In this document: piece by piece, positions 7,452 to 49,461 of the stretch
Layout of the letters: every line of letters starts with the position of its first letter
Position numbering within the stretch: the stretch's first letter is position 1
The notes under the pieces: model-generated
What the model was told of the DNA's origin: nothing
What the model saw: the letters and a program-made list of their open reading frames with translations, nothing else
Databases searched by the model: none
Assembly: GCA_049512075.1 (NCBI GenBank)
Contig: JBEKXL010000001.1
Span: forward strand, 192,001-256,000
Length of the DNA stretch: 64,000 bases
DNA from: Candidatus Bathyarchaeia archaeon
GTDB taxonomy: Archaea; Thermoproteota; Bathyarchaeia; Bathyarchaeales; Bathycorpusculaceae
Direction of reading: 5' to 3'
Position numbers and translations under genes: made by a program

Positions 7452-7898
7452 CTAGATTGCGCGCATGTTGGAAAGCTTTTCGACTATGTCAATCATTTCT
7501 TGATCAACGCTGACCGTTCGGGCAATGTTGGTTAGGGTAATCAAACCTATCAGCTTTCCATTCTCCACGATGGGGAGCTTCTTGATCTTCCTCTTAAACA
7601 TGAGTCTGGCAGCTTCGTGGATTTCCATGTCAGGGTTTCCCACGACAAGCTTCTGTGTCATGATGTCCGAAACAGCCAGTTTCCTAGGATCCTTTGCCTT
7701 CTCCAGGACTTTCTCCAGAAGATCTCTCTGAGTTACAATCCCTCTTGCTTCCCCATTGTCCTCGATAATCAAACATCCTATGTTATTCTTGTTCATCATT
7801 TTCACTGCATTGTCGACAAGGGTACAGGAGTTTACTTTCACCACTTCTTTAACCATGATGTCTTTGGCCTTCAAGAAGTCCGCCGATAGGGAAATCAT
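7452..7898 (-). CDS. CBS-domain pair protein
   Basis: AKDIM..GIVTQRDL and VSDIM..KKLPIVENGKLIGLIT repeats. Confidence 0.9.
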   Translation of the reverse strand: MISLSADFLKAKDIMVKEVVKVNSCTLVDNAVKMMNKNNIGCLIIEDNGEARGIVTQRDLLEKVLEKAKDPRKLAVSDIMTQKLVVGNPDMEIHEAARLMFKRKIKKLPIVENGKLIGLITLTNIARTVSVDQEMIDIVEKLSNMRAI

Positions 7899-8380
7899 TC
7901 AATTATTCTTTTAAGGAATTGTGTGTAACAGGACCCTACTATCAACGGAATGGGCGCTGCCTACGTGATCTTGTTGCGTGTCTCGCTACATATGCCCTTC
8001 TTCTTATTAGAATCATACAGAAATCAAACCTGAGGATAACCTATGCTTAGCGCGTGCGCTCACATAAACGGCGACATTACATCGGATGTGTGTAAAAAGG
8101 GGACAGGGATCAGCTCTCGAAAGTATTTCTCATGACGCACAGCCTCCCACTCTCCGACGCCAACGTTTCAAGCGGTCAGAAGCTGGACAGCACGCGCACG
8201 AACTTCGCGCCAAAGATCCCGTGTGGCGAATACAAACACGCTGAAGTGCGCCAGAAGATAATGGCAAGTTTCGCCTCTTCACCTAGATCTTTCACGGCAC
8301 AGAAAATCTTAATTCACTATGCTTAAATCAAAGTGTGCTGTTAACTTCCGAAGACGAATCCTAAGTCGTTAATCCGACGC

Positions 8381-8480
8381 AGCGGGGTGGGGTAGCCAGG
8401 ATTAACCCGCTGGGCTCATAAAAGCTCAGTTGCTTTGAGAAACCCAGAGATCAGTAGTTCAAATCTACTCCCCGCTACCA
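8381..8480 (+). tRNA. tRNA-iMet(CAT) with 21-nt canonical 37/38 intron (8421-8441), CCA encoded
   Basis: A1-U72 acceptor AGCGGGG/CCCCGCT; three G-C pairs closing the anticodon loop; BHB helix CTCA/TGAG with 3-nt bulges; T loop TTCAAAT. Confidence 0.95.
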
Positions 8481-8897
8481 AAGCCTACACGAAACTTCTC
8501 TTCACAAAAGCTTACGTCATCTTCTCGCACCTTTAGGCTTCAGAGCGCTTGAAATATCCGCTTCCTTCAAATCTCTCAAGATGCTTGATACTTGATCTAA
8601 CACTAGAAGGAAATCAAAAGTATTAATACCTCAACGTTCCAAACCCTAATGTGACTTACTTTGCAGATTGATGCCATAGAGAACTCTTTGCTTCAGGCCA
8701 CGATTAATCCGTTCCTCAAACGGATAATCAGCCTCATAGACAAGGAATGCCCGAGGGACGGAAATCTTCTCTTAAACTCTCTAAAAGACTTTTGGGCGAA
8801 CCGATTTCTCTATGTCCAACATGTAAGAGTGTAAGCAAAGCTGGCTAGACACTTTTACAGACTTGGAAGCAGCTTCCTACGAGTAGACAAGGACTTT

Positions 8898-10181
8898 ATG
8901 CGAAATCAGTTTCTGAACGACGAATTCGGAGAAGCCTGGTTCAGAGGGTTCGACCTCATGATGAAGGGTGTAGAGAAATATGGCGTACGCATACCTTTTA
9001 CGCCCGCAGGACCCTTCGAAATCGTTTGGAACGTTACTTATCAATGCAATCTGAGATGCAAACACTGCTACGAGAACGCTGGCCAGAAACGCCCAGAACT
9101 CTCCACGGATGAAGCCAAACAAGTGTTAGACAAAATCGCAAAGCTGTCGGGCATCGGTCTGCCAGCGCTGTCCTTCAGCGGCGGTGAACCACTTGCGAGA
9201 AAGGACTTTTTTGAACTTGCAGCCTACACGAGAAAACGTGTGGGCTACTTAAGCATCGCCTCAAATGGCACATTGATTACTCGTGACAACGCAAAAAGAA
9301 TCAAGGATGCTGGGGTCGATTACGTTGAGATAAGCATCGATGGAACAACGCCCGGGGTTCATGACTCGTTCAGAGGCATCCCAGGCGCGTTTGAAAGGGC
9401 GACAGATGGTGTAAAAAACTCTCTTGAAGAGGGCGTGGACACTTGCATCGCAACCGTCTTGCACAGGGACAACATAAATGAGCTGAACAAGCTTATCGGA
9501 CTATCGAAACAGTTGGGCACGAGGTTCATGCATTTCAACTACATTCCCACGGGAAGGGCAAAGGCTCACGTTGAACTGGACTTGACTCCCAACCAGAGAT
9601 ACGAAGTGCTTGAAACCATCGGCAAAGAAATAGTAGGGCTTTACATGCAAAAGAAAGGAGAGGAAATCAAGTGGGGAAAATCGGACATCAAGGTTGACAG
9701 GTTCTTCAGCACATGTCCCCAGTACGCCAGTGTTACAAAAGAGCTGTCACAAAGGCAGGGTGGAAGGTTTATGGTGGAAGCTCACTATGCGACGAAGCAG
9801 GGTGTTGAGAACGTCGCTAACTTCTTAGGTGGATGCGGTGCTGGACGGCTGTACTGCTGCCTCGAACCAAACGGAGACATAAAACCCTGTGTCTTTTTCC
9901 AAACGTCCAAGGAAACAGTTCTTGGAAACATGCTGAAGGACAGCTTCGAAGAAATATGGGACACAAATCCGCTACTGTGGAAACTTCGCATAAGAGAAGA
10001 CCTTGAAGACTGTTCAGTGGACGGAAAGAAAGTGGGCTGCGGTGAATGCCCGGACAAGTACATATGCGGAGGGTGCAGGGCCAGAGCCTACAGCTACTTT
10101 GATGGCAACGTGAAAATGCCGGATGTCGGCTGCATTCACAATCAGCCTCTGTGGGAAAAGATATCTAACTCAAGGAACTAG
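8898..10181 (+). CDS. Radical SAM/SPASM domain protein (AhbD/NirJ-like); N-terminus probably extends to 8661
   Basis: CNLRCKHC motif, SGGEPL, GCGAGR..PC and CGEC..CGGCRA SPASM cysteines. Confidence 0.9.
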   Translation: MRNQFLNDEFGEAWFRGFDLMMKGVEKYGVRIPFTPAGPFEIVWNVTYQCNLRCKHCYENAGQKRPELSTDEAKQVLDKIAKLSGIGLPALSFSGGEPLARKDFFELAAYTRKRVGYLSIASNGTLITRDNAKRIKDAGVDYVEISIDGTTPGVHDSFRGIPGAFERATDGVKNSLEEGVDTCIATVLHRDNINELNKLIGLSKQLGTRFMHFNYIPTGRAKAHVELDLTPNQRYEVLETIGKEIVGLYMQKKGEEIKWGKSDIKVDRFFSTCPQYASVTKELSQRQGGRFMVEAHYATKQGVENVANFLGGCGAGRLYCCLEPNGDIKPCVFFQTSKETVLGNMLKDSFEEIWDTNPLLWKLRIREDLEDCSVDGKKVGCGECPDKYICGGCRARAYSYFDGNVKMPDVGCIHNQPLWEKISNSRN

Positions 10182-10224
10182 CGTGAAAAGAAAAATTAGA
10201 TATCTGCGCCAACAGTCGGCGGAC

Positions 10225-10422
10225 TCACGCCTTTCCTTTCTCTTCCTTTCCGAAATAGGTGGTCCATTTGAGTTTGCGCGCGTCTCTCCTCAAAAATAGG
10301 GAGCTTTTTCTGCACTTGCTTGAACAGAACCACAGAATCGATCCGTCATTCTTGATGAACATCATGCCGGTGCCCGCTGGGAATTCGCTGCCACAGAATG
10401 AACATTTTCTAGGCCTCGGCAT
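10225..10422 (-). CDS. rpl24e: 50S ribosomal protein L24e
   Basis: CSFCG..GTG..DG..FCSSKC..WT. Confidence 0.95.
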
Positions 10423-10454
10423 CAGCCATCTCTCCGAATAATCTGGATGCGAGC

Positions 10455-10685
10455 TTATCTGTTAATCTTCTTTGCTTCTCTCTCGGTTTCCCTGAGCATC
10501 AAAAGGTCCTGGATTCGCACGGGCCCTTTCACGTTGCGCGTTATAATGCGACCCTTGTCCTTCCCTTCAAGGATGCGTATTCTGACCTGCGAGATCTCGC
10601 CCGTAACACCAGTGCGTGCGATTACCTGAATCACTTCTGCCGGCGTAAGCTCTGCCTGCTCAGCCTCTCTCTCCTCTCTGCTCAT
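10455..10685 (-). CDS. rps28e: 30S ribosomal protein S28e
   Basis: [21 protein letters not shown]. Confidence 0.95.
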
Positions 10686-11065
10686 TAGGTCGTTCCTCTT
10701 CTCAACTGTTCAACTCTCGTGACAATCTCTTTTACCAATCCCGCGGCGTCTCCTTCTTTGACGATGCACGCCGCTCCAGCAGGAACGTCAATACCTATGG
10801 CACTGCCAATCTTTTCCTTGCTCGGAACGAATATGTAGGGAATTTTCCTCTCTTCACACAGCAAAGGCAAATGGGCAACGACTTCCGGTGGCTGTACATC
10901 TTCAGCTATCACCACAAGTTTGGCCTGAGCTCTTTCAATAGCCTTCGTCGTCTCATTCGTGCCTTTCCTAACTGCACCTGTCTTAGCGACTATTTGCAGG
11001 GCTTCATAGGCGGCATCTGCCAGCTCTTTTGAAACTTCAAACTTCACATAGAATGGCTTGGACAT
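10685..11065 (-). CDS. rpl7ae: 50S ribosomal protein L7Ae
   Basis: [30 protein letters not shown]. Confidence 0.97.
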
Positions 11066-11161
11066 AAGCCTCTCCCTTCAAATGCACAGTCTAATCAACA
11101 GTTCCTATTTAAGAAGGTTTCGACCCCAGTTAGCGGGCGCGCATGCGTATTCCTGAAACGG

Positions 11162-11290
11162 TTAAGAATGGTGTTTATTTCTTTTTCGCGGGGTTTGAGT
11201 ATAGGAAAACTCTTCGTGTAGGGTCTGCCCGAGCTCCCATGATATGCCATGCCTCAAAGCGGCCAAAATTTGCCTATCAAACAAGTCCAT
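11162..11290 (-). pseudogene. Remnant of small winged-HTH gene
   Basis: MDLFDRQILAALRHG start typical of wHTH, then short unrelated tail. Confidence 0.35.
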
Positions 11291-11670
11291 ACCAGATGCT
11301 AACAAGCATGAGAAGAACATAAACCGTTTTACACAAACTCGAGAAAAAACATGCGCGTCACGGCACACTAAACCCGATAAAGCATATTTGGCTCCAAATA
11401 GAGGGGCCTACACCCGTTGCGCGCACACACAAAAACAACACGAAACAAGAACACTGCTCAGCCTCACTACACCTAAAAACCGAATTCAGGAACACACATG
11501 CACGCTACTAATTGTACAGAGAGACAACCCAAAGGAGCCAGAGCCAAAACCATAGCTTTGAAACCTCAAGCAGACTCCGAGCGCGCACGAAAACTTGAGG
11601 GGACAGCCTACTTCGGAAAAGAAGAAAAAGGAAAACCCTGACAACCCTTCATGCAGTGCCCGTTTTCCTT

Positions 11671-12513
11671 CTATACATTTTTCTTTGGCAAATAAACGGC
11701 ACAAAGCAGTCCGAAGTACGTGGGTACCTGATAAGATAACAGACGCCCAACCATTTCAGTGTGATTCAGAATGCCCTGCAATATGGCCAATTGCCAGAGG
11801 CTATCAGGCTTCGCATCTTCGACAAACTGCGGCGGTAAGCTAAGCAGCGGAACCAAATCATTCTTCAAAACAGCGTTCCTAACTTCTTCGTCATACTTCG
11901 CAGATGCCAAATGAAAGCCATACGGACCCTTAGCATCGTGAGCGTGACCTTGGTCAGCGCTTGCCACGAAAGCAATCTTCCTGCCTGAAGCCTCAGCGGC
12001 CTCGGCGACCACGCGTCCGAAACGCACAAGGCTCTGCAACGGAATTTCCCTTGAAGGCGTGACTATCACAACATTAGGCCCTGCCTGACCCTGCCCAACA
12101 AGAAACCATAGCGGTATCAGTGTACCCCAATCCATAGGCATACAAGAAGCTTCACCTTCGCTAGCACCATAGTTGACACCTACGACAGGAAGCGCAAGCT
12201 TCCTTGCGCTTTCCAGGATCTGCCTTGCCAGTTGTCGATCACATTTACAGCGAAGTCTAATCGTGTTGCCGTTGGCCTCCAACTTTCCCTCAGCAAACTC
12301 TGCAGTTACAACGCCTACAGTTCCCTCCAAACGCATATTATGCGGCGTGGCTAAAACAATCGTGTCAGGCTTATTCTGCTTCATCTCCTTCCCCAGCTGT
12401 TCCATCCCCCTGCGGGTCTCAGCAAAAGCTTCAAGCATGTCCCCAGCCAATTCTGGAATGGCCTCCGCTCCATGCGGTGCAATGCACGCAAAAACCACAC
12501 TCATCTTCGCCAT
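11671..12513 (-). CDS. LigB-like class III extradiol ring-cleavage dioxygenase
   Basis: APH, TPH, MDWGTLIPL, VASADQGHAH, SYQVPTYFG. Confidence 0.85.
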   Translation of the reverse strand: MAKMSVVFACIAPHGAEAIPELAGDMLEAFAETRRGMEQLGKEMKQNKPDTIVLATPHNMRLEGTVGVVTAEFAEGKLEANGNTIRLRCKCDRQLARQILESARKLALPVVGVNYGASEGEASCMPMDWGTLIPLWFLVGQGQAGPNVVIVTPSREIPLQSLVRFGRVVAEAAEASGRKIAFVASADQGHAHDAKGPYGFHLASAKYDEEVRNAVLKNDLVPLLSLPPQFVEDAKPDSLWQLAILQGILNHTEMVGRLLSYQVPTYFGLLCAVYLPKKNV

Positions 12514-12556
12514 CCACCACGGATATTGTCCACGAACCTCAAAGTAATAAACTAGT

Positions 12557-12564
12557 GGTATTCC
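12557..12564 (+). repeat. Left 8-bp target site duplication GGTATTCC
   Basis: Identical direct copy at 18384-18391; each copy abuts a terminal inverted repeat. Confidence 0.93.
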
Positions 12565-12588
12565 GGTTCTGTTAACTCTTCGGGTCTT
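12565..12588 (+). repeat. Left terminal inverted repeat GGTTCTGTTAACTCTTCGGGTCTT
   Basis: 23/24 match to reverse complement of 18360-18383. Confidence 0.93.
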
Positions 12589-12611
12589 GCATGGATAAAT
12601 GTTTGTCCATG

Positions 12612-13301
12612 TTAACCAAAGGGGCTTTTCTGCGAAACTTCATCTATTTTTACAATAGACGATATGTCCATAGATCCATCGAGCATATGTACCCCAATTT
12701 GGTAGCAACGACTTACACTAGGATACTTCGGTTGAATCTGTCTAATGAGTTCGGCGATTTTTTGAGCATGATATAGACAACTATCGTCAACTCTAGTAAA
12801 CTCAGTAGATGGTCTGATTGTTTTGTTAAAATTAACTATGATGTCTTTAACCTCCTCTTCTTTTGCCTCGTATGGACAAATGGCTGCTACTTTATTCTCT
12901 TCCCATCTTGCTAGCCCATCTCCCAATGAGGGATGAACCACATCAAGTCTAAGCTTTGGGATTTCATTCAAAAGTGTTATGTAACTGTATATCCATCCTG
13001 TTAGCCCAATGTCGTCTTCAGTAATTGAAAAAAGAATCTTAGCAGACTTGAAGCGTTCTTCTTTAATTATCTCATAGATTTGGTCTGTGTTGGTAATAGT
13101 TTCTTTTTCAAGTCTAGTTTTCACGGCATTAAGCAAGTCAGTTCTTCCAGCTCCAGTAATCAATCCGCAACTCGTTTTTTGAATTTTCACGGAATTATCG
13201 GTATAACCTATTATTTGTTTTGCTTGATTGAAGAAAACAGTTCGCGTGTCCGCAGCCAGAAGAACATAGTTCCCAAAATTGATTCCTAATGCGATTGTCA
13301 T
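12612..13301 (-). CDS. Proteasome-beta-like Ntn hydrolase (transposon cargo)
   Basis: M|TIALGINFGNYVLLAADTR gives Thr1, Asp17, Arg19 at proteasome-beta positions; KI..TGAG follows. Confidence 0.7.
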   Translation of the reverse strand: MTIALGINFGNYVLLAADTRTVFFNQAKQIIGYTDNSVKIQKTSCGLITGAGRTDLLNAVKTRLEKETITNTDQIYEIIKEERFKSAKILFSITEDDIGLTGWIYSYITLLNEIPKLRLDVVHPSLGDGLARWEENKVAAICPYEAKEEEVKDIIVNFNKTIRPSTEFTRVDDSCLYHAQKIAELIRQIQPKYPSVSRCYQIGVHMLDGSMDISSIVKIDEVSQKSPFG

Positions 13302-13534
13302 AGTATTCAGAAGAGTTCTAACACAGAGCTACTAAAAAACATAAATGAAAACACACGGTTCGAGCACGCATTTTTCTGATGGTGTGTGCAGGGTTCTGCT
13401 TATTTCGGCTGAAAATTTACCAAGAGCAAATAATGATATTAGCGAGCACTGTCTAAGCATGTTTGTTACTTTTATTAAGGTCGACCTATTCCAATCATAC
13501 GAAGTGCCTCCACCCGCATTTATGGTGACAGTAA

Positions 13535-13957
13535 ATGAATAGAAAATTGTTTAATCTTGCGAAAAGTTCTGCATTGGTTTTTGCTCTTGGTTTTCTTCCA
13601 GTTCCCTTCTTGATTCATGTGGGTTATGCTCCCTTGCTTGTCTGCAGTTTTTCTATGGCACTCATGCTTTTGTGGTCTGATGGACTGTTGACGTTATTTT
13701 CAATACGAAAAGGAGCTACCGAAATCAATCCCATCATAAACTTCCTAAACAACATAGCTGGAGAAAAAAGGGGAGTTTTGTTGTCTAGGGTTGTAGGTTC
13801 AATTTTTCCATTAGTCGGCTTGCTGGAAAGGAATCTCTATTTCACTTTGGCGATTTCGTGGGTGTTCGCTGCGGTGATTTTTCTAAATTCTGCAACTCTA
13901 CTCTCGGTACTTGCCGAAAATATAGATGCAAAACAGACCTACCACGCCAATGAATAG
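13535..13957 (+). CDS. Membrane protein, DUF5658-like
   Basis: About four TM segments; DGLLT..GATEINP motif. Confidence 0.6.
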   Translation: MNRKLFNLAKSSALVFALGFLPVPFLIHVGYAPLLVCSFSMALMLLWSDGLLTLFSIRKGATEINPIINFLNNIAGEKRGVLLSRVVGSIFPLVGLLERNLYFTLAISWVFAAVIFLNSATLLSVLAENIDAKQTYHANE

Positions 13958-14083
13958 CAACCAATACTGAGGCGCTAAAAGCGATCCCACAGCGGAAGCA
14001 ACTATCCATATCGTCCCGATTGCAAAGCAAGCTATTAAAAACACTAGAGCTATGTTATGCCAGCTCACATCGTCCTCACTCAT
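13898..14083 (-). CDS. Small 2-TM membrane protein
   Basis: GAGGTGA RBS upstream; two hydrophobic helices. Confidence 0.55.
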   Translation of the reverse strand: MSEDDVSWHNIALVFLIACFAIGTIWIVASAVGSLLAPQYWLLFIGVVGLFCIYIFGKYRE

Positions 14084-14342
14084 CTTGAACCTTCACCTCT
14101 CTCCAAATTGTTTCTTTTACTGGCTAAGAAAGGCTGGCAACGCTTCTAGCCCTCTGATCGGTCGCCCCTCAAAACACAAGTTTTAAATGTGCAATTATGC
14201 ACATTTCTACTTGCGAAATCTGAGAGAGTGGCGATGACCCTTTGGCTAGGAGAGTCACCCGCCTCGTTTATAGCCATTTTAACAGTAGTACAGCTTACAT
14301 ATTTAAGATTAACTGTAATCGCACTAGTATGACCAAAACGAC

Positions 14343-14416
14343 GCGAGAATCCTTTGCATGTTGGTGAAACTTAGTGTGCATGATGATGCTGTACAACATG
14401 GTCAAAGGATTTTCGC
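14343..14416. repeat. Long imperfect hairpin
   Basis: GCGAGAATCCTTTG-CATGTTG pairs with CAACATG-gt-CAAAGGATTTTCGC (21 bp, 2-nt bulge). Confidence 0.75.
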
Positions 14417-14541
14417 TCATGCATGAAATCTGCTTCTCACTGGGAGTTAGAACTGTGTCGATTTTATTTTATTACAAAACGGCATAGACAGTTAACTATA
14501 TATTGCCGATGTTACAACACACTCTACAAGTGTGATTCACG

Positions 14542-14832
14542 TTGGAGAAGCCTCAAAAGATGAAGATTGTAAGTGTCAAGGAGATTCCTTTCAAGCTAAA
14601 GAAAAAGGGTGATGAGTGGTTACAACAGATTCTAAAGATACCTCCTGGCAAGGCTTGGGTACTTACAGAGGAAGAGGCGGGCATACAAGCTGCATCACTT
14701 AGAATGATGGTGGACAGACTGAAAAAGATTGGAGAACTATCAGATCATTACAAGCTAACACAACGTATGATTAAAGGCAAGGTTACGGTATACATCATTA
14801 ACACTGCAGAGGAAAAGACAGAGTTGGTATGA
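14542..14832 (+). CDS. Small basic hypothetical protein, possibly DNA-binding
   Basis: TATA-like CTATATA and GTGA RBS upstream; Lys-rich; no family recognised. Confidence 0.55.
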   Translation: MEKPQKMKIVSVKEIPFKLKKKGDEWLQQILKIPPGKAWVLTEEEAGIQAASLRMMVDRLKKIGELSDHYKLTQRMIKGKVTVYIINTAEEKTELV

Positions 14833-14854
14833 CATACAAAATTACAAGTTAAGA

Positions 14855-14994
14855 GTAGACGACCGATAACAGAGAACATGAACGCATACCGCAGGGTTAT
14901 GGCCACGGTGTTGGGCGTGCCCAATAGCACTAGCGGTATGGTATGCCAGCTATGGTGGCGGGCTGTTTCTGTTTCTCTGTCGGCATACGTCTGC
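14855..14994. ncRNA. Candidate multi-stem structured RNA or ssDNA element
   Basis: Nested stems GTAGACG/CGTCTGC, CCGATA/TGTCGG, ACAGAGAACA/TGTTTCT(CT)GT, CATACCGC/GCGGTATG. Confidence 0.45.
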
Positions 14995-15090
14995 CCTTAT
15001 TATAGAGTCTCTTCGTATAAAAGTTTATTCCTCGGTACATACTTCAGTATATGAGTGGGAATAGACGCCTGAATATACTTCAGCATACGC

Positions 15091-15264
15091 CTATTTGCCT
15101 TCACGTTCTACTATGAGCTTGCTCCCATCAATTCTAACAGTGATGATCTCGCCCACTTTAAAGGGAAAGTTACTGTCTTCGATTAGGTCTTTCTGCAAAT
15201 AGATTGTGTGCCTAGAACCAACTCTACTGATTTTTGTCTTCACTTGACGCACCACTTTGAGCAC
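15091..15264 (-). CDS. AbrB/MazE-like small DNA-binding protein (below ORF-track cutoff)
   Basis: Manual translation MLKVVRQVKTKISRVGSRHTIYLQKDLIEDSNFPFKVGEIITVRIDGSKLIVEREGK; swapped-hairpin pattern. Confidence 0.7.
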   Translation of the reverse strand: MLKVVRQVKTKISRVGSRHTIYLQKDLIEDSNFPFKVGEIITVRIDGSKLIVEREGK

Positions 15265-15317
15265 CGTCGCATATACCTAAGTATGCAGACTTATTTAAAT
15301 CTTTATACACGTGAGTT

Positions 15318-15377
15318 TATACCACGGTGTAGAAACTGTTATATACTTGTGTGTACATTAGTATATACCACGGTGTA
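15318..15377 (+). promoter_or_regulatory. Transposase promoter flanked by two identical 14-bp quasi-palindromic boxes
   Basis: TATACCACGGTGTA at 15318-15331 and 15364-15377 around TTATATA (15339-15345). Confidence 0.75.
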
Positions 15378-15382
15378 AACCG

Positions 15383-15799
15383 ATGAGAACCTCAAACACA
15401 CGCAAAATCCGTGCGTACTCTCTCCTAGCTCACGGAAAGGTTGACAAGATAAGCGATTTTGCTTATCGTGTCTGGTCTCAGACTGAGGAAGGCAAACACT
15501 ACATTGTTGTTAGGGAAGGGCTTGAGTGGAGATGCGAGTGTCCAGATTTTGTTTTCAATCATGTGGCTTGCAAGCACATTCATGCGGTTGAACAGATTAG
15601 GTTAAATGAGCAAGTCGCATTTCCTTCTGAGAAAGAGGGTGAGAACCTATGCAAAGAAGTGGAATCACCAGAGTCGGTTTGTAAATTCTGTGGCTCCGAG
15701 AACATCGTGAAGAGAGGGTACAGAAGCACTCAGAACGGAAAGGTTCAACGGTTCTTCTGCAACAACTGCAAAAGAAAATTGAATGAAGGCTACTCCTGA
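15383..15799 (+). CDS. Transposase N-terminal part: SWIM Zn finger plus Zn ribbon
   Basis: CECPD..CKH SWIM motif; CKFCGS..KRG..QRFFCNNCKRK Zn ribbon. Confidence 0.85.
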   Translation: MRTSNTRKIRAYSLLAHGKVDKISDFAYRVWSQTEEGKHYIVVREGLEWRCECPDFVFNHVACKHIHAVEQIRLNEQVAFPSEKEGENLCKEVESPESVCKFCGSENIVKRGYRSTQNGKVQRFFCNNCKRKLNEGYS

Positions 15800-16553
15800 A
15801 ACAATCACGGTAGCTCTAGATCTGTACTTCAAAGGAATCAGTATGAGGGCAATCGTTGACCACATAAAGCAGTTTTATGGAGTAGAGGTTAGTCATGTGG
15901 CGATTTACAAGTGGATTCGCAAGTACGTTTCGATGATGAAGAAATATTGTGATCAGCTAGTTCCTAGAGTTAGCGGAATTTGGCACAGTGACGAAATGGC
16001 CTTGAACATAAAGGATTTGGACAATCACGACAGCTTGAGATGGGCTTGGAACGTGATCGACAACAAAAGTCGGTTCTGGCTTGCTAGTCAGATAACGGAG
16101 AAGAGGGAAATTGCTGACGCTAGGAAAGTGTTGGCTCAAGCCTCGACACTTTCGCAAACGAGACCTATGGCCGTTGTGACTGATGGATTGAGAGCTTATC
16201 AGGACGCGATACCCAAGGAGTTCTTCACTATGAAGGGGCCAAGGACTCAGCACGTTAGGATTCCGAACATTAGAGACAGGTCGAACAACAACATGGTTGA
16301 AAGACTTCACGGAACGATTAGGCAGAGGAACAAGGTTATGCGTGGACTAGATGATACGGAAACAGCACAGACAATGATGAATGGACTCAGAATCTACTAC
16401 AACTTCATGAGACCTCATATGGCACTAGATGGAAAAACTCCAGCACAAGAAGCAAGAATCGTCGATAGTTCAAAACCCGAGAATTGGCTCTCCCTAATCA
16501 AGAAGGCAAGTCAACACCAGATGTTTGAGGCACAGCCCAAGGACTCTCGCTAG
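15783..16553 (+). CDS. IS6/IS240-type DDE transposase, catalytic part
   Basis: HTH (VSHVAIYKWIRKY), WHSDE, VVTDGLRAY, NNMVERLH, YNFMRPH..GKTPA. Confidence 0.9.
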   Translation: MKATPETITVALDLYFKGISMRAIVDHIKQFYGVEVSHVAIYKWIRKYVSMMKKYCDQLVPRVSGIWHSDEMALNIKDLDNHDSLRWAWNVIDNKSRFWLASQITEKREIADARKVLAQASTLSQTRPMAVVTDGLRAYQDAIPKEFFTMKGPRTQHVRIPNIRDRSNNNMVERLHGTIRQRNKVMRGLDDTETAQTMMNGLRIYYNFMRPHMALDGKTPAQEARIVDSSKPENWLSLIKKASQHQMFEAQPKDSR

Positions 16554-16568
16554 AAGCTCAAAAGTAGG

Positions 16569-17165
16569 TTATATAACTGTGATTTCGATACTACCAAATT
16601 TTGGATCTGAAGAAAGATGGGCGAAGCTTTTGTCTGCGGTTATTAGGCCATCTGCAAAAAACCCTAATGCGAGAAAAGCATGAACTAGGTCAATCCATCC
16701 TAAGCCCTTGTAGGTGTAATGTTCAAAAGAACCGTTACAAATTTGGCATCTGTAATACTTCTTGGCAATTCCGAAATAGTCCTTCGAGTAATCATAGACA
16801 TCTTTCATCATTTGTTTTAGATCGACTGGAGTAAAATCGCTAAAAAGAATTAGTCCCTGATCTTCCATTTGAGTAAGAACTTGTAGCAGGTCTTTGATTT
16901 TTGTGTCAGATTCTCCTTTTAGATATAAGTTCTGTGATATTGTGTCCAACAAATCAAGTTTTGACTTATCTGTTCTTTCAGTAACTCTGCGCCTAATGAC
17001 ATCTATAACCTCCATTAATGTTAGCATAGAAACCAACCCGATAATTTTCTTCTTCATTATGTCGTCTTCGATTATTCTCCTTGCATCATTGTAGAATCTG
17101 TCTGTTGGGCCTAACTGATATGACAATATAATTGAAGAGTCAAGATACTTGACTGGCAAAGTCAC
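16569..17165 (-). CDS. PIN-domain (VapC-like) nuclease with CxxC insertion
   Basis: YLDSS, LMEV, GWIDLVH, LITADKSF; internal CQIC. Confidence 0.8.
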   Translation of the reverse strand: MTLPVKYLDSSIILSYQLGPTDRFYNDARRIIEDDIMKKKIIGLVSMLTLMEVIDVIRRRVTERTDKSKLDLLDTISQNLYLKGESDTKIKDLLQVLTQMEDQGLILFSDFTPVDLKQMMKDVYDYSKDYFGIAKKYYRCQICNGSFEHYTYKGLGWIDLVHAFLALGFFADGLITADKSFAHLSSDPKFGSIEITVI

Positions 17166-17527
17166 GAGCGTTTCCTCAACGTCCTGACTAACTCTACTGC
17201 ATCTTTTTCATCAGAGTATTTTGAAAGAGAACCATCAAGCAAAGAAAGATCGACTCTCTCATCGGTTATTTCTGGCAAAGAGTATTCATCTCGAAGTTTC
17301 TTTGATAATGTCATGCTTTGTCTCGTTATCATATTACGAATGATCAACTTTTTTGCGGAAAAAGGTTGTTCTGCAGAATTTTCTTTCACGATAGGTCTTA
17401 TTTGAAGTTGGGTCGTGATTTCAGCCATAAAACCGCTATCTCTAAGAAAAGCCAAGAGTTCGGCCCATTTCTCGGGAAGCTGTTCTCTTTCGCTCTTTTT
17501 CTCAAACAGTTGACTGTAATTGGCCAT
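17162..17527 (-). CDS. Hypothetical protein, putative antitoxin
   Basis: GTGA-coupled to the PIN gene; C-terminal DAVELVRTLRKR resembles archaeal VapB tails. Confidence 0.5.
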   Translation of the reverse strand: MANYSQLFEKKSEREQLPEKWAELLAFLRDSGFMAEITTQLQIRPIVKENSAEQPFSAKKLIIRNMITRQSMTLSKKLRDEYSLPEITDERVDLSLLDGSLSKYSDEKDAVELVRTLRKRS

Positions 17528-17529
17528 GT

Positions 17530-18222
17530 TTAGCCCTTCAAGATGCTCAAGAACTCGTTACAGTCTTTAATTGAGTCTTGAACCAACTTAGCTAATTCAA
17601 TAGTCGCGGGGGAAGTCTTAAACTTTGTTATCAATTCGATTTTTAGAAGATTTTTCTCCATATCTTCAAGTATATCATAACTTTGTTTCTTGTCAGTAGA
17701 TTCTTGTGATACCATGATTTCCCGTAGTCCAAATGTAAATTCATTTCTTTGGCTCTTCAATTTCTTTACTAGGGGAAAGTCAATTTCACTAACGAGGTAT
17801 TCTTTTAGAGGAACTTCAAATCTAGCAGTCAATTTTACATTTGCGCTTTCAACGACTTTGGCACTTGCCCCTAGAAAGACACCGAGAAACAGATTGAAAT
17901 TTGATTGTGCCTCACGAAGAATTTCCTCTCGGGGAGGTTGCGCTTCTTTCTCTGGCGGGATTGATGTCTTATGAACCTTGAAGTCCATTTGAAGAGTGAT
18001 TTTCTTGGATGACACGAATATGTTGTATCCTCGACCTGATCTCAAGCCCTTCCTAGGCATTTCGTCAAGGGTTTCGCTTATTTCAATAGGTAACGAAAAT
18101 TCAGTCTTCATATCGCCTAATTTTATGTTGTCAATTGCTCTGTCAATTTTTTCCCATTCAGATTCGTATTTAGTGGTTATTTCCAAAATCAGAAAATTAG
18201 CATCTTCGTCTCTGAGCATCAT
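17530..18222 (-). CDS. Hypothetical protein, first gene of PIN operon
   Basis: 230-aa ORF ending 2 nt before the next start; alternating beta/alpha pattern; no family recognised. Confidence 0.65.
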   Translation of the reverse strand: MMLRDEDANFLILEITTKYESEWEKIDRAIDNIKLGDMKTEFSLPIEISETLDEMPRKGLRSGRGYNIFVSSKKITLQMDFKVHKTSIPPEKEAQPPREEILREAQSNFNLFLGVFLGASAKVVESANVKLTARFEVPLKEYLVSEIDFPLVKKLKSQRNEFTFGLREIMVSQESTDKKQSYDILEDMEKNLLKIELITKFKTSPATIELAKLVQDSIKDCNEFLSILKG

Positions 18223-18359
18223 GTAAACTCCAACATAGTTTCATTCTTCGCTTTCAGTATAAATCGTTTGTCTGTCGCAAAGAAACACTCTCATTCTAAT
18301 TTAGGGCAACATATATTCGTAACGGTAGAAAAAAGCCCCGCGGGTTAACAAACTTCTTT

Positions 18360-18383
18360 AAGACCCTAAGAGTTAACAGAACC
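18360..18383 (-). repeat. Right terminal inverted repeat
   Basis: AAGACCCTAAGAGTTAACAGAACC; reverse complement matches left TIR 23/24. Confidence 0.93.
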
Positions 18384-18391
18384 GGTATTCC
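18384..18391 (+). repeat. Right 8-bp target site duplication GGTATTCC
   Basis: Identical to 12557-12564. Confidence 0.93.
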
Positions 18392-18528
18392 TAAAATGGG
18401 AAAAAATGGTCTCAAGCCCCTTCTTACATGTACAGGTTTGCCATGGATTTGTTTGATGAGCGTGTTGCCCAGGGAATAAAACCATTTTGCACCATTTTCG
18501 GAACACACATGCGCGCCCGAACCAAATG

Positions 18529-19281
18529 TTACATGTTCAGCACTCTGGTCAGTATGAAAGTCAGTATGAATATCAGTATGAATCCAGCGGTACACGTAAT
18601 TATTGTGAGTGTTACAGGATTCTTCTCATGCGCTGTTGGCAGGAGGTCACTCGCTCCTAGATATAGGAAACCGCCTGCAAAGAAAGGCAGAAGGAGCACT
18701 ATGTAATACGGCGGCAACTGAATAAAAAGTGTGACAACTGCCCCCAGAACTGGGGCAACTGCGTCCAAGAGCAGCATCCTCAAAGAATTTCGCAGTGAGT
18801 TGCCAGAATTCAGCATCACAGTGACCGTACTCAGCCCGTCAGTGAAGTCGTGGCATATGACTGCAAATGCAATTATGATGCCAACGTGAATATCAGCTTC
18901 AAGACCGAACCCAATTGCCAAGCCGTCTATGAAACTGTGAACTGAGAGTTCTGATGTTGCAAAGACTCCACCCAAAGGGTGCTTCACTTCAACGTATTCG
19001 CCATCTTGGCTGAAAACATGTTCATTTATCATTCTGGAAACGATGTAGAGGAAAAGGAATCCGACAACCGTAAGAGCCATCACGTCTTCAAGATCTACAC
19101 TGGCAGATTGGGCGAGCTTGAAAGTCTGTGGTAGTACATCAAGCAAGGAAGTTGTAATCAGTACACCAGCTGCAAAGGCTCCCAGAATTCCGATGTTCTT
19201 CCGATGTCGCGCTGCGAAAATCCCGCCGAACATTGTGGAAAAGCAAGTAATGACAGCCAAGAGAATTGCATCAAAGTTCAT
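18529..19281 (-). CDS. ZIP-family metal transporter
   Basis: FAAGVL, HSFIDG, HDFTDG, AGGFLY. Confidence 0.9.
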   Translation of the reverse strand: MNFDAILLAVITCFSTMFGGIFAARHRKNIGILGAFAAGVLITTSLLDVLPQTFKLAQSASVDLEDVMALTVVGFLFLYIVSRMINEHVFSQDGEYVEVKHPLGGVFATSELSVHSFIDGLAIGFGLEADIHVGIIIAFAVICHDFTDGLSTVTVMLNSGNSLRNSLRMLLLDAVAPVLGAVVTLFIQLPPYYIVLLLPFFAGGFLYLGASDLLPTAHEKNPVTLTIITCTAGFILIFILTFILTRVLNM

Positions 19282-19456
19282 ATGAGCATTAGGTTCTGAG
19301 ACTGAGCTACTTAACGGTTTTTGTGACCGAAGTATTTTCCACTCTTTAAGTTCTTGTACTATATGCAGAATAAACTTCCGAAGGCTCTATGTGTAATGTT
19401 TAAGGCTGTTCGCCTAGTGAAAGGAAAGATCAGCGCGCGCTGGATGAGCGGAGCCA

Positions 19457-20536
19457 CTAGCGTTTTCTTTTTCCTTGCATGTACTCTTCCACAGACTGTT
19501 TTGCCATGGAGTCTGGCACCTGGATGGGCGGATGCTTGAACGCATAGGAGGATATGCTGAGCAGCGGCCCGGCTATCTTGCGGTCCAGCGCTATCCTCAC
19601 TGCTCGTATTATGTCAATCACAACGCCTGCACTGTTAGGCGAGTCCTCAACCTCAAGCTTCACCATCACCGTCAACGGCCTGTCCCCGAACTTTCTTCCT
19701 TTCAACCACAGATAGCATACCTTCTTGTTCCCCAAGAAAGGCACGTAGTCCGAAGGCCCAATCCGCGTGGGCAAATCGTACGGCACGAGACTCGTAACCG
19801 CCTCCGTCTTGCTTATACGCTTTGTCTTCAAACGCTCCTCAACCGTCATGTTCAAGAAATCCGTGTCCCCGCCCAGATTCAACTGGTAAGTCTCGTCTAT
19901 AATCACGCCCCTATCGACGCAAAGCTTGGCCAATGCCCGATGCAATATCGTTGCGCCCAACTGACTCTTGATATCGTCGCCCGCAATCGGAAGCCCCTTT
20001 TCCTCAAACTTCTTGCCCCATCCGAAGTCTGAACCGATAAACTCCGGCATACAATTGATAAAAGCACAGCCAGAGTCCAATGCTGCCTGAGCATAGAACC
20101 GCGCTGCATCATGACTTCCAACCGGCAGATAGTTAACGAGAATCTCCGCCCTCGACTTCTTCAACACTTCAACAACATCCACCGGCTTGACTTCACCGTT
20201 CTTGTAAACGCTGAAGACTTCTTTCATGTGGTCAGCCACACCGTCAAGGACGGGGGCAGATGAAACCTTCACTCCCAGTTTCGGCACGTCCGCGAATTTG
20301 GCACAGCAGTTCGGCGCTGTGAATATGGCCTCAGACAAATCTTTTCCAATCTTGTTCTTGTTAACCTCAAAAGCCGCAACAAACTTCACGTCCCTAACGT
20401 GGTATCCGCCAAAATTAACATGCATCAAACCCGGCACCGTCACGTTCTCCCCAGCATCCTTGTAATACTGCACTCCTTGAACCAGCGCTGACGCCGAGTT
20501 TCCCACGCCTACGAGCGCCACTCGAATTTCTGGCAA
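19457..20536 (-). CDS. ino1: myo-inositol-1-phosphate synthase
   Basis: GVGNSASALVQG, NYLPVGS, GDDIKSQ, DSPNSAG. Confidence 0.95.
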   Translation of the reverse strand: MPEIRVALVGVGNSASALVQGVQYYKDAGENVTVPGLMHVNFGGYHVRDVKFVAAFEVNKNKIGKDLSEAIFTAPNCCAKFADVPKLGVKVSSAPVLDGVADHMKEVFSVYKNGEVKPVDVVEVLKKSRAEILVNYLPVGSHDAARFYAQAALDSGCAFINCMPEFIGSDFGWGKKFEEKGLPIAGDDIKSQLGATILHRALAKLCVDRGVIIDETYQLNLGGDTDFLNMTVEERLKTKRISKTEAVTSLVPYDLPTRIGPSDYVPFLGNKKVCYLWLKGRKFGDRPLTVMVKLEVEDSPNSAGVVIDIIRAVRIALDRKIAGPLLSISSYAFKHPPIQVPDSMAKQSVEEYMQGKRKR

Positions 20537-49098: not shown

Positions 49099-49461
49099 TA
49101 CACCTTAAGAAAGGACACAAGACCCGAATTAGTGCAAAGAGTCGGCATAAGAGTACGTGAGACAAACAATCTAGTTGAAAGGATGCACGGCACAGTCAAA
49201 GACAGAACAAGAGTAATGAGAGGACTCAAAAGCTTCGATTCTACAAAGTCACTTCTGGAAGGCTTCACAATTCACTACAACTATGTGAGACCACACCAAA
49301 GCCTAGGCGGAAAAACGCCAGCACAAGCAGCAAGAACACAAGCACCTTGCACGTGGAAAGGATTGATAGACGAAGCAACAAAACATGAAGCGCAACTTCT
49401 GGCCAAAACTACAAGTCCTGAGAAAACGGAGAAAAGAGAAATGGAGGCGGTAGTGAAATGA
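49099..49461 (+). pseudogene. C-terminal fragment of IS6-type transposase
   Basis: YTLRKDTRPELV..NNLVERMHGT..YNYVRPH..GKTPA, homologous to 15783-16553; first two catalytic Asp regions missing. Confidence 0.85.

Follow-up and report, generated by a model that had tools for sequence, protein, structure and literature searches.

A probable unit transposon with an IS6-like transposase and passenger genes in a Bathyarchaeia chromosome

Ends of the element and its target site

The window analysed here is a stretch of 64,000 nt from the genome of a Candidatus Bathyarchaeia archaeon (assembly GCA_049512075.1, contig JBEKXL010000001.1, C1:192001-256000 in our numbering; 2.73 Mb in 86 contigs overall). 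Between a LigB-like gene and a ZIP transporter gene, which flank the insertion site, lies a segment of 5,819 bp (12565-18383; positions are those of the window unless a contig or locus is named) that is enclosed by a pair of 24-bp terminal inverted repeats (TIRs) and, outside these, by an 8-bp target site duplication (TSD). Nine open reading frames (ORFs) inside it were taken as genes, the transposase being counted as two pieces, which agrees with the roughly nine genes of a preliminary description made from the sequence alone. That description had proposed a TIR/TSD-delimited unit transposon served by one IS6-like transposase with SWIM and Zn-ribbon extensions, and the ends, empty sites and relatives presented below bear this out. 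We interpret the segment, with a probability of about 0.85, as a non-composite unit transposon of an archaeal IS6-like family in a Bathyarchaeia chromosome, inserted after the lineage split from a population that is about 99.6% identical to it in the flanks. The following features delimit it.

12557-12564, no strand: left TSD copy GGTATTCC, read directly; present as a single copy at empty sites
12565-12588, plus strand: left TIR GGTTCTGTTAACTCTTCGGGTCTT; TIRs of this type also close further elements, both in the same genome and in relatives
12605-12629, plus strand: left subterminal repeat, in which the TIR core TGTTAAC appears again, at 12610 (repeat search)
18331-18350, minus strand: right subterminal repeat with a second TIR-core copy, as reverse complement, at 18344 (repeat search)
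18360-18383, minus strand: right TIR AAGACCCTAAGAGTTAACAGAACC, the reverse complement of the left TIR with one mismatch
18384-18391, no strand: right TSD copy GGTATTCC, a perfect match to the left copy

The TIRs agree at 23 of 24 positions and the TSD copies at all 8, exactly as claimed in the preliminary description for 12557-12588 and 18360-18391; AAACTAGT precedes the left GGTATTCC, and the right GGTATTCC is followed by TAAAATGG. In a repeat search of 11500-19500, the TIR pair came out as the longest inverted one. The 24-mer, sought with up to 3 mismatches, had no occurrence in the 64-kb window beyond the two tips, and none in 100 shuffles. An inverted TIR pair nearer to the transposase was also looked for, and none hugging that gene turned up, the string GGTTCTG occurring inside the element only at 13392 and 16072, both times on the forward strand. 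Both ends begin with GGTTCTGTTAAC and thus show the GG start, the G at position 7 and the CTGTT that serve as criteria for ends of the insertion sequence (IS) family IS6; the 'caaa' motif of IS6 ends is absent from the element's TIRs. The GGTTCTGTT start matches the IS257-type tip as given in the preliminary description. A subterminal copy of TGTTAAC is present at both ends; on the left it lies at 12610, 40 nt inward of the first core copy, and the subterminal inverted pair 12610-12629 and 18331-18350 is 85% complementary.

Two empty sites prove the insertion. When window positions 11000-20000 were searched against 40 related genomes, contig C16 of the same-genus genome G002 gave matches to the left and right flanks at 95% identity that overlap by exactly 8 bp. 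This site reads AAACTATT, GGTGTTCC and TAAAATGGGC in succession, where GGTGTTCC is a lone target copy with one single-nucleotide polymorphism. The other empty site was found among Logan contigs from four public runs, aligned to 12000-19000. A 24,892-bp contig of a freshwater metagenome from another study than the likely source (run X8, depth 45) covers 12000-12556 and then 18384-19000, skipping 5,827 bp (ends GG..CC) at a joint with 8 letters common to both sides, and its flanks show 5 mismatches in 1,174 nt (about 99.6% identity). The X8 population is therefore without exactly the element and one TSD copy, and the empty allele that the preliminary description had proposed to look for exists both in a related genome and in a near-identical metagenome contig. 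Contigs from run X4 span the entire element and the left junction with no differences, and X6 and X7 yielded low-depth fragments that show presence only. Two more skip joints in metagenome contigs (12593 to 18364 and 12631 to 18358), with short sides of 21-27 nt, are read as other family elements with shared ends, not as alleles of this site.

Because a population of about 99.6% identity in the flanks is without the element, the insertion is young. The recent insertion supposed in the preliminary description thus stands relative to that population, although the broken transposase described below means that decay has begun or that the copy was defective on arrival. The G+C content of the element is 0.405, against 0.481 and 0.489 in its 5-kb flanks and 0.475 in the genome, which suggests an origin outside this genome, where the element is single-copy.

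On the right, a short repeat (18389-18517) adjoins the insertion site and matches C4:132399-132536 as well as many places in relatives. Contig depth in the bin 18318-18551 is 306-1,220, with loose ends at 18477/18478 and 18510/18516. An Rfam search of 10500-20000 at E-values up to 0.1, this repeat included, gave no matches.

A transposase in two overlapping frames

The preliminary description placed a single transposase in the centre of the element, 2.8 and 1.8 kb from the ends. There is indeed one transposase, which lies 2,818 nt inward of the left tip and 1,830 nt inward of the right one, but its gene is not intact, and two ORFs in overlapping frames together cover 15383-16553.

15383-15799, plus strand: transposase piece 1, 138 aa, with a SWIM zinc finger and a CxxC Zn ribbon (Pfam, NCBIfam, alignment)
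15780-15781, plus strand: site of a 23-nt deletion, between the Zn ribbon and the HTH-DDE part (DNA alignment to the related genomes G021 and G003)
15783-16553, plus strand: transposase piece 2 (ORF2), 256 aa, bearing a helix-turn-helix (HTH) plus an IS6-type DDE domain (Pfam, NCBIfam)

Piece 1 matches the SWIM profile PF04434 with 25.3 bits (cut-off 19.6) and an IS1/IS1595-type Zn domain with 23.8 bits, under its cut-off of 28; it aligns with the N-terminus of intact relatives of 371-390 aa. ORF2 matches PF13610 (DDE_Tnp_IS240) with 60.2 bits against a cut-off of 27. PF00872 (Mutator) was matched with 22.5 bits against 21. The best model for these transposases is the IS6 equivalog NF033587, which is matched over positions 1-202 of 202 and gives 118.6 bits for ORF2, 121.7 for the intact G021 protein and 120 for a paralogue on contig C2, the cut-off being 125; the IS1 model comes next with 65 bits. 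Across four intact relatives, D210, D274, E313 and R320 are invariant columns. The paralogues in the same genome and the G021 orthologue (about 390 aa; a 401-aa ORF as called) are single ORFs of 371-390 aa in which SWIM, Zn ribbon, HTH and DDE domains follow one another in this order. Of 825 database homologues, the best 120 that were listed are likewise mostly single-ORF proteins of 376-399 aa, and one bears the NCBI name 'IS6 family transposase'.

Compared with both G021 and G003, the window copy is missing 23 nt between the CKRK of the Zn ribbon and a conserved MKATPE. This deletion shifts the frame by +1 and removes about 8 linker residues that are conserved in intact relatives, so that, as its sequence reads, the window transposase is damaged. 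An X4 contig (record 2) is identical over 15631-16274, with 0 differences and 0 gaps and the deletion included; since an independent assembly has the same sequence, the deletion is not an error of this metagenome-assembled genome (MAG) alone. The frameshift makes the autonomy of the window copy doubtful. ORF2 starts at a conserved Met and appears to keep, on its own, the domains of a canonical IS6 enzyme (HTH and DDE). In G003 the transposase is broken otherwise, by a nonsense change from TAC to TAA, and the G021 copy is intact.

Elsewhere in the window, positions 49099-49392 (C1:241099-241392) hold a 136-aa remnant of the C-terminus of another IS6-like transposase, 43% identical to ORF2.

Related elements, a small divergent gene and the passengers

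A genome-wide search for the TIR pattern, as suggested in the preliminary description, gave eight occurrences with up to 3 mismatches in the own genome, two of them the window ends and others belonging to further elements with the same ends. One such element (C5:9664-10712, 1,049 bp) comprises a C-terminal remnant of the transposase and a 177-aa ORF between TSD copies GGCAAAGA and GACAAAGA (7/8), and another (C5:84296-85096, 801 bp) holds only an AsnC-type HTH gene between ACACTATC and ACATTATC (7/8). The stretch C17:48550-50257 (L005) shows a family end, then a 352-aa protein with a RelA/SpoT domain (PF04607, 73.6 bits) and, where the contig stops, a remnant of the transposase; this truncated copy may carry an alarmone synthetase as cargo. 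A solo end lies at C1:337044. Three of the four distant paralogues in this genome are bounded alike, by TSDs GTCGCGCG (2,607 bp), AGTTGCAA (3,171 bp) and CTCGTCAC (8,093 bp). The last, at C2:143214-151306, has GGCTCTGTGAAGTC-type TIRs, an exact TSD and an intact 381-aa SWIM-IS6 paralogue, and is the largest member seen. Elements with the same ends were also delimited in related genomes:

G003, 4,325 bp: TSD TCTTTTTG, perfect; a nonsense codon interrupts the transposase
G021, 5,807 bp: TSD GAAAATGG, perfect; intact transposase, an N6_N4 methyltransferase-Mrr fusion and three ORFs of no family
G005, 1,150 bp: TSD GTTGAAGT, perfect; a MEDS-domain regulator, no transposase
G003, second element, 1,237 bp: no matching TSD

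Relatives were then sought in species-representative genomes with four intact proteins, which gave 370 matches, and the best-scoring 80 of these (79 distinct loci) were scanned for 16-nt inverted repeats (up to 3 mismatches allowed) that an exact 8-bp direct repeat adjoins on the outside. Repeats were sought on both sides of the transposase, and positions flush with the gene were allowed. A TIR/TSD pair was found at 51 of the 79 loci, with a GG-type TIR in 50 of them, against 3 matches in 3 x 79 scans of offset controls. The 50 GG-type elements measure 2,425-6,570 bp, with no short IS among them. Upstream of the transposase, the left arm has a length of at least 374 bp (median 1,311 bp), and the right arm goes down to 36 bp; both arms reach at least 800 bp in 28 of the 51 elements. 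When the ORFs of the 51 elements were compared all against all by BLASTP, they fell into 175 clusters, and the transposase alone was common to all elements. Distant TIR/TSD pairs with variable cargo, which the preliminary description had suggested looking for among homologues, were thus present at 50 of the 79 loci, and by these sequences the window element is no one-off but a member of a widespread archaeal family in which cargo is the rule. Among the recurrent cargo, cluster c1 comprises 9 ORFs, most of 630-907 aa, and its tested member is an Eco57I/MmeI-type restriction-modification (R-M) enzyme with an HSDR_N domain.

The 79 loci are mostly labelled Bathyarchaeia or Nitrososphaeria, and also include a Methanosarcinaceae MAG, a Methanoperedens MAG, two Asgard MAGs and three loci with bacterial labels. 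The 50 delimited elements likewise mostly bear the labels Bathyarchaeia or Nitrososphaeria, with one from Asgard (Atabeyarchaeum) and two labelled as bacterial. The bacteria-labelled MAGs account for two Limnocylindrales loci and one Saccharibacteria locus (L101, L115 and L103), among which complete bounded elements are present at L101 (5,343 bp) and L103 (4,629 bp); either mis-binning or inter-domain spread would explain them. Among five matches in viral contigs, one (L117, 5751-10590) is a TIR/TSD-bounded element of 4,840 bp inside a 102-kb predicted viral contig of IMG/VR, and such a contig may be a vehicle for the spread of the family.

At locus L045, the left TIRs of two candidate elements (7701-13041 and 8783-13041) pair with one right end and have the TSD CTTTATCA in common, which suggests nested or tandem elements. 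A loose end of an X6 contig at window position 18383 reads CTTTATCA followed by a GGTTCTGTAAAC-type TIR, so that here one family element abuts another.

The repeat inside the TIRs of the window element recurs across the family. The 7-mer of TIR positions 6-12 is repeated exactly and in direct orientation 28-40 nt inward at 34 of 102 ends, where shuffles lead one to expect 0.47, and in 19 of the 34 it lies at 28 nt. From these sequences we infer that each end holds two transposase-binding sites.

A further recurrent component is a small gene that is divergent from the transposase.

15091-15264, minus strand: 57-aa core accessory gene, putatively AbrB/MazE-like (recurrence in relatives, structure model)

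This gene lies 119 nt upstream of the transposase and is the only one of the element's eight non-transposase ORFs to recur in related elements. A hidden Markov model (HMM) search found its family in 7 of the 51 elements, always divergent and 119-138 nt upstream, bar one ORF with an extended start call; iterating the HMM left the count at 7 of 51, and other clusters of small genes were not reached. The 57-aa protein has no Pfam match of its own, and 2 of its 10 homologues match PF04014 (E = 0.015). Its structure model (predicted local distance difference test score, pLDDT, 76) has the order beta-beta-alpha-beta-beta, with MazE and VapB as best PDB matches (probability 0.99-1.0, template modelling score 0.55-0.61, E = 0.06). 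A match of the family profile to uL6 among PDB sequences (E = 1.3) was taken as chance. An ORF of 40-160 aa occupies the divergent upstream position in 49 of the 51 elements, some of these ORFs being surely spurious. In other subfamilies, 2 of 3 tested small genes at this position pass the Pfam MazE_antitoxin/SpoVT-AbrB profile (PF04014), Zn ribbons were also seen, and further small proteins look ribbon-helix-helix-like by reading of their sequences. The position (49 of 51) and the separate Pfam matches are the grounds on which we regard a small divergent gene as conserved, and this regulator and the transposase may form a conserved module. The 57-aa protein may serve as a regulator or as an accessory factor at the 119-nt intergenic region, and it answers to the element's own regulator of the preliminary description.

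The remaining ORFs of the window element are the passengers.

12612-13301, minus strand: cargo ORF, 229 aa, no family (ORF list)
13535-13957, plus strand: cargo ORF, 140 aa, no family, with the look of a membrane protein by reading of its sequence (ORF list)
13898-14083: doubtful ORF, 61 aa, overlapping the 140-aa ORF (ORF list)
14542-14832, plus strand: cargo ORF, 96 aa, no family (ORF list)
16569-17165, minus strand: cargo ORF, 198 aa, probable PIN-domain protein (sub-threshold Pfam match and homologues)
17162-17527, minus strand: cargo ORF, 121 aa, no family, with a stop that overlaps the PIN-like gene's start (ORF list)
17530-18222, minus strand: cargo ORF, 230 aa, no family (ORF list)

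The left arm thus carries proteins of 229, 140 and 96 aa, and the right arm those of 230, 121 and 198 aa in an apparent minus-strand operon. For the 198-aa protein, PF01850 (PIN) gives 22.2 bits, under the cut-off of 23.6, and 4 of 10 homologues carry a precomputed PF01850; a Pfam search of the cargo ORFs at E-values up to 5 added nothing past this weak PIN match. The 229-aa protein has no Pfam, NCBIfam or credible PADLOC match and occurs in no related element. Its atlas look-alikes are bacterial hypothetical proteins, one cluster of which has PF00227 in 19% of its members, and this offers a lead, as yet a lead only, towards an Ntn-hydrolase or proteasome-like protein. The look-alikes of the 230-aa protein include 'TIGR04255 family' clusters, again as a lead only. 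PADLOC gave no credible match for the seven cargo ORFs, the sole match (AbiLi, 16.9 bits) having no domain that passes, and there is no resolvase or integrase among the Pfam and NCBIfam matches of the element's proteins. The preliminary description had proposed defence-like cargo on both arms: cargo is present on both, but its defence character found no support, PADLOC yielding nothing credible and the PIN match being sub-threshold. R-M cargo is real in relatives, and a defence role of the element's own cargo is conjectural.

Mechanism, known systems and alternative readings

The 8-bp TSD, the GG...CTGTT tips and the IS240-type DDE domain make IS6-type chemistry the likely one. The transposase would bind the terminal and subterminal sites and join the 3' ends to the target with an 8-bp stagger, the repair of which would give the 8-bp duplication. 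By analogy with IS26 and IS257, the product would probably be a replicative cointegrate that is later resolved by host recombination; cut-and-paste would be the alternative. For IS26 and IS257, copy-in cointegrate formation followed by homologous resolution is described in parts of two IS6 accounts (PMC7986276, PMC6807381). A cargo-bearing single unit fits such a copy-in route since only the ends and the transposase matter, and the DNA outside this core machinery would be passengers that differ between elements. The state after resolution of a cointegrate would equal what is seen here. With no second copy and a low G+C content, delivery from an extrachromosomal or foreign donor is favoured.

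With canonical IS6 elements (IS26, IS257/IS431, IS6100) the window element shares an HTH and a DDE_Tnp_IS240 domain, GG TIRs with G7 and CTGTT, and an 8-bp TSD. It differs in its length of 5.8 kb, in about eight extra genes carried as cargo inside one pair of ends, in the subterminal repeat of the TIR core and in the divergent gene for a small, putatively DNA-binding protein; intact transposases of its family are about 380-390 aa long, with N-terminal SWIM and Zn ribbon. Canonical members, as presented in a part of one review, are about 0.8 kb long and passenger-free, with one ORF of 220-250 aa (PMC7986276). The compactness of the IS6 family (0.7-0.9 kb, long clades reaching 1.76 kb, and no gene but the transposase) is far from the 5,819 bp found here and from the 2,425 bp of the smallest delimited relative. 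In passages of the same literature, zinc-finger extensions are described for the clostridial clades h and i, of 1.23-1.76 kb (Varani et al. 2021, PMC7986276), which correspond to clades VII and VIII in Harmer and Hall 2019 (PMC6807381) and include ISCpe7 and ISTet2. These likewise carry an N-terminal CxxC zinc-finger extension, which may be homologous to that of the present family, clade i having one further N-terminal domain, but as described there they are bacterial, 1.2-1.76 kb long and have no passengers mentioned. A GG start occurs in only one of the long-clade set in the part of Harmer and Hall consulted (PMC6807381). The only IS6 member that appears as a tIS (passenger-carrying IS) in the relevant passage is ISDsp3 (PMC7986276), likewise of the IS6 family and with a passenger between its ends; that passenger is a single hypothetical gene, and the element, of about 1.45 kb, is a single copy in one Dehalococcoides strain and is called not intact by Harmer and Hall (PMC6807381). 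In the present family, by contrast, 1-8 passengers are the rule, in 50 delimited elements from several archaeal lineages.

The layout also recalls the Tn3 family, which combines one DDE transposase and one TIR pair with variable passengers, cointegrates and non-autonomous TIR-bounded derivatives. The likeness lies in the one DDE transposase, the single TIR pair and the variable internal passengers. Tn3 transposases are of about 1,000 aa and another family, the TIRs measure about 38 bp and the TSD 5 bp, and there is a dedicated resolvase along with its res site; in the window element neither resolvase nor integrase turned up. The transposase-less elements of C5 (801 bp) and G005 (1,150 bp), with family TIRs and TSDs of 7/8 or 8/8, resemble mobile insertion cassettes (MICs) or miniature inverted-repeat transposable elements (MITEs), a likeness that holds for these derivatives and not for the window element.

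The preliminary description did not recognise a described family, and our literature search gave no published description either in the main-text passages of IS6 reviews and archaeal mobilome papers that it covered (supplementary tables, ISfinder and TnCentral lay outside it). Varani et al. 2021 (PMC7986276) describe archaeal IS6 members as generally smaller, Harmer and Hall 2019 (PMC6807381) describe 37 archaeal IS, and Krupovic et al. 2019 (PMC6563490) treat IS-like transposons of thaumarchaea as having 1-2 genes, in each case in the parts covered. Cargo-carrying IS6 elements go unmentioned in the corresponding parts of a 2026 survey of archaeal IS (PMC13343696) and of a paper on the mobile genetic elements of Atabeyarchaeia (PMC11529989). 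This cargo-carrying archaeal branch of IS6 is thus apparently undescribed.

Several observations count against our reading of the segment as an IS6-like unit transposon, and we weigh them here together with the alternatives. The scan of relatives covered best-scoring matches and not a random sample, and at 29 of the 79 loci, several of them cut by contig ends, it found no GG-type TIR/TSD pair. Compared as a whole 20-mer, the subterminal repeat does not stand out from shuffles (10.9 of 20, against 10.2), the 7-mer core alone being enriched. No cointegrate, circle or second full copy was seen, and a single copy is not the outcome of simple intragenomic replicative transposition. Family membership can be questioned too, as the curated cut-off of NF033587 is missed by 3-6 bits and a passage of Harmer and Hall doubts that archaeal and long-transposase 'IS6' forms belong with IS26 (PMC6807381). 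It is accordingly conceivable, though unlikely in our estimation, that the transposase represents a distinct, unnamed IS family, IS1-like or IS256/Mutator-like, for which 'IS6-type' would be a misnomer. NF033587 scores of 118.6-121.7 bits, just under 125, would suit such a family, as would the 65 bits of the IS1 model, Zn ribbon included, and the Mutator match of 22.5 bits over a cut-off of 21. SWIM is typical of Mutator-like transposases. Yet the IS6 model is the best by far and is matched end to end, PF13610 lies well above its threshold, the TIR has GG, G at position 7 and CTGTT next to an 8-bp TSD, and NCBI names one relative an 'IS6 family transposase'.

The state of the transposase raises a different question, since the window copy is, from its sequence, probably defective or reliant on transposase in trans, and its own genome offers no intact transposase of the same subfamily, just fragments of 76-77% identity and paralogues of 35-44%. 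The segment could then be an inert relic, immobilised by the 23-nt deletion, with genes that are now ordinary chromosomal passengers. The recurrence of that frameshifting deletion in an independent assembly and the breakage of the G003 copy make this a serious possibility, to which we assign somewhat less than even odds; set against it are ends and a TSD that are still essentially perfect, a youth attested by the ~99.6%-identical population without the element, an ORF2 of canonical IS6 length and domains with a conserved Met start, and transposase-less derivatives with perfect or 7/8 TSDs, which show mobilisation in trans within the family. Two-ORF transposases fused by frameshifting occur in other IS families, such as IS1 and IS3. 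Programmed ribosomal frameshifting, with the split as a regulatory device, would find some footing in the A-rich overlap AAAAGAAAATTGAATGAAGG, but the second frame is offset by +1 and not -1, the junction is a deletion that removed about 8 conserved linker residues, and single ORFs of 376-399 aa prevail among the best 120 that were listed from the 825 homologues; we consider it very improbable. Since the genome also has solo ends and short derivatives that bear this TIR, one might imagine a chance arrangement of solo ends or MITEs around unrelated genes, or an IS26-style pseudo-compound of two IS copies. A pseudo-compound has two directly repeated IS copies, whereas here there is one transposase, two TIR copies, both at the tips, and no internal TIR at up to 3 mismatches; 50 relatives repeat the layout of a single transposase and two ends with exact TSDs. 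From both empty sites exactly the whole 5,827 bp is missing, with one 8-bp target left in place, which refutes such an arrangement, and we give it practically no credence.

Beyond the unit transposon itself, we see an even chance that it represents an uncatalogued IS6-related lineage of archaea made up of obligate unit transposons. Every delimited member would have a SWIM-Zn-ribbon-DDE transposase, a divergent small DNA-binding partner (AbrB/MazE-like, ribbon-helix-helix-like or Zn-ribbon), two-site ends and 1-8 exchangeable passengers, and the lineage would also give rise to single-gene cassettes without a transposase. On that same balanced judgement, the lineage would range over Bathyarchaeia, Nitrososphaeria and Asgard, with transposase relatives, not delimited elements, in methanogen-related MAGs, and its passengers would comprise whole R-M enzymes, regulators and toxin-antitoxin-like genes. 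If so, it would be a major vehicle of gene flow in archaea without known plasmids and the first case of an IS6-type enzyme that moves cargo as a single unit. IS6 is the textbook minimal IS, with cargo moved via two-copy pseudo-compounds only, a picture that a large archaeal cargo branch alters. In groups for which few plasmids are known (Bathyarchaeia, ammonia-oxidising archaea, Asgard), the elements offer a concrete route by which R-M systems and regulators can pass horizontally, and pipelines that expect an IS to have 1-2 genes will miss or mis-size them. The family allows a test of whether IS6-type enzymes are confined to cointegrate formation, and ends of about 70 bp together with intact transposases of ~390 aa are candidates for a transposon tool in lineages without genetics.

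A separate observation concerns an octamer that is over-represented in the whole genome. It does not occur between C1:190617 and C1:211433, nor in the transposon. It was counted 646 times as GCGCGCGC (for example at C1:2124 and C1:34485) and 353 times as CGCGCGCG, against about 28 expected from base composition in either case, and it often lies within AGCGCGCGCT.

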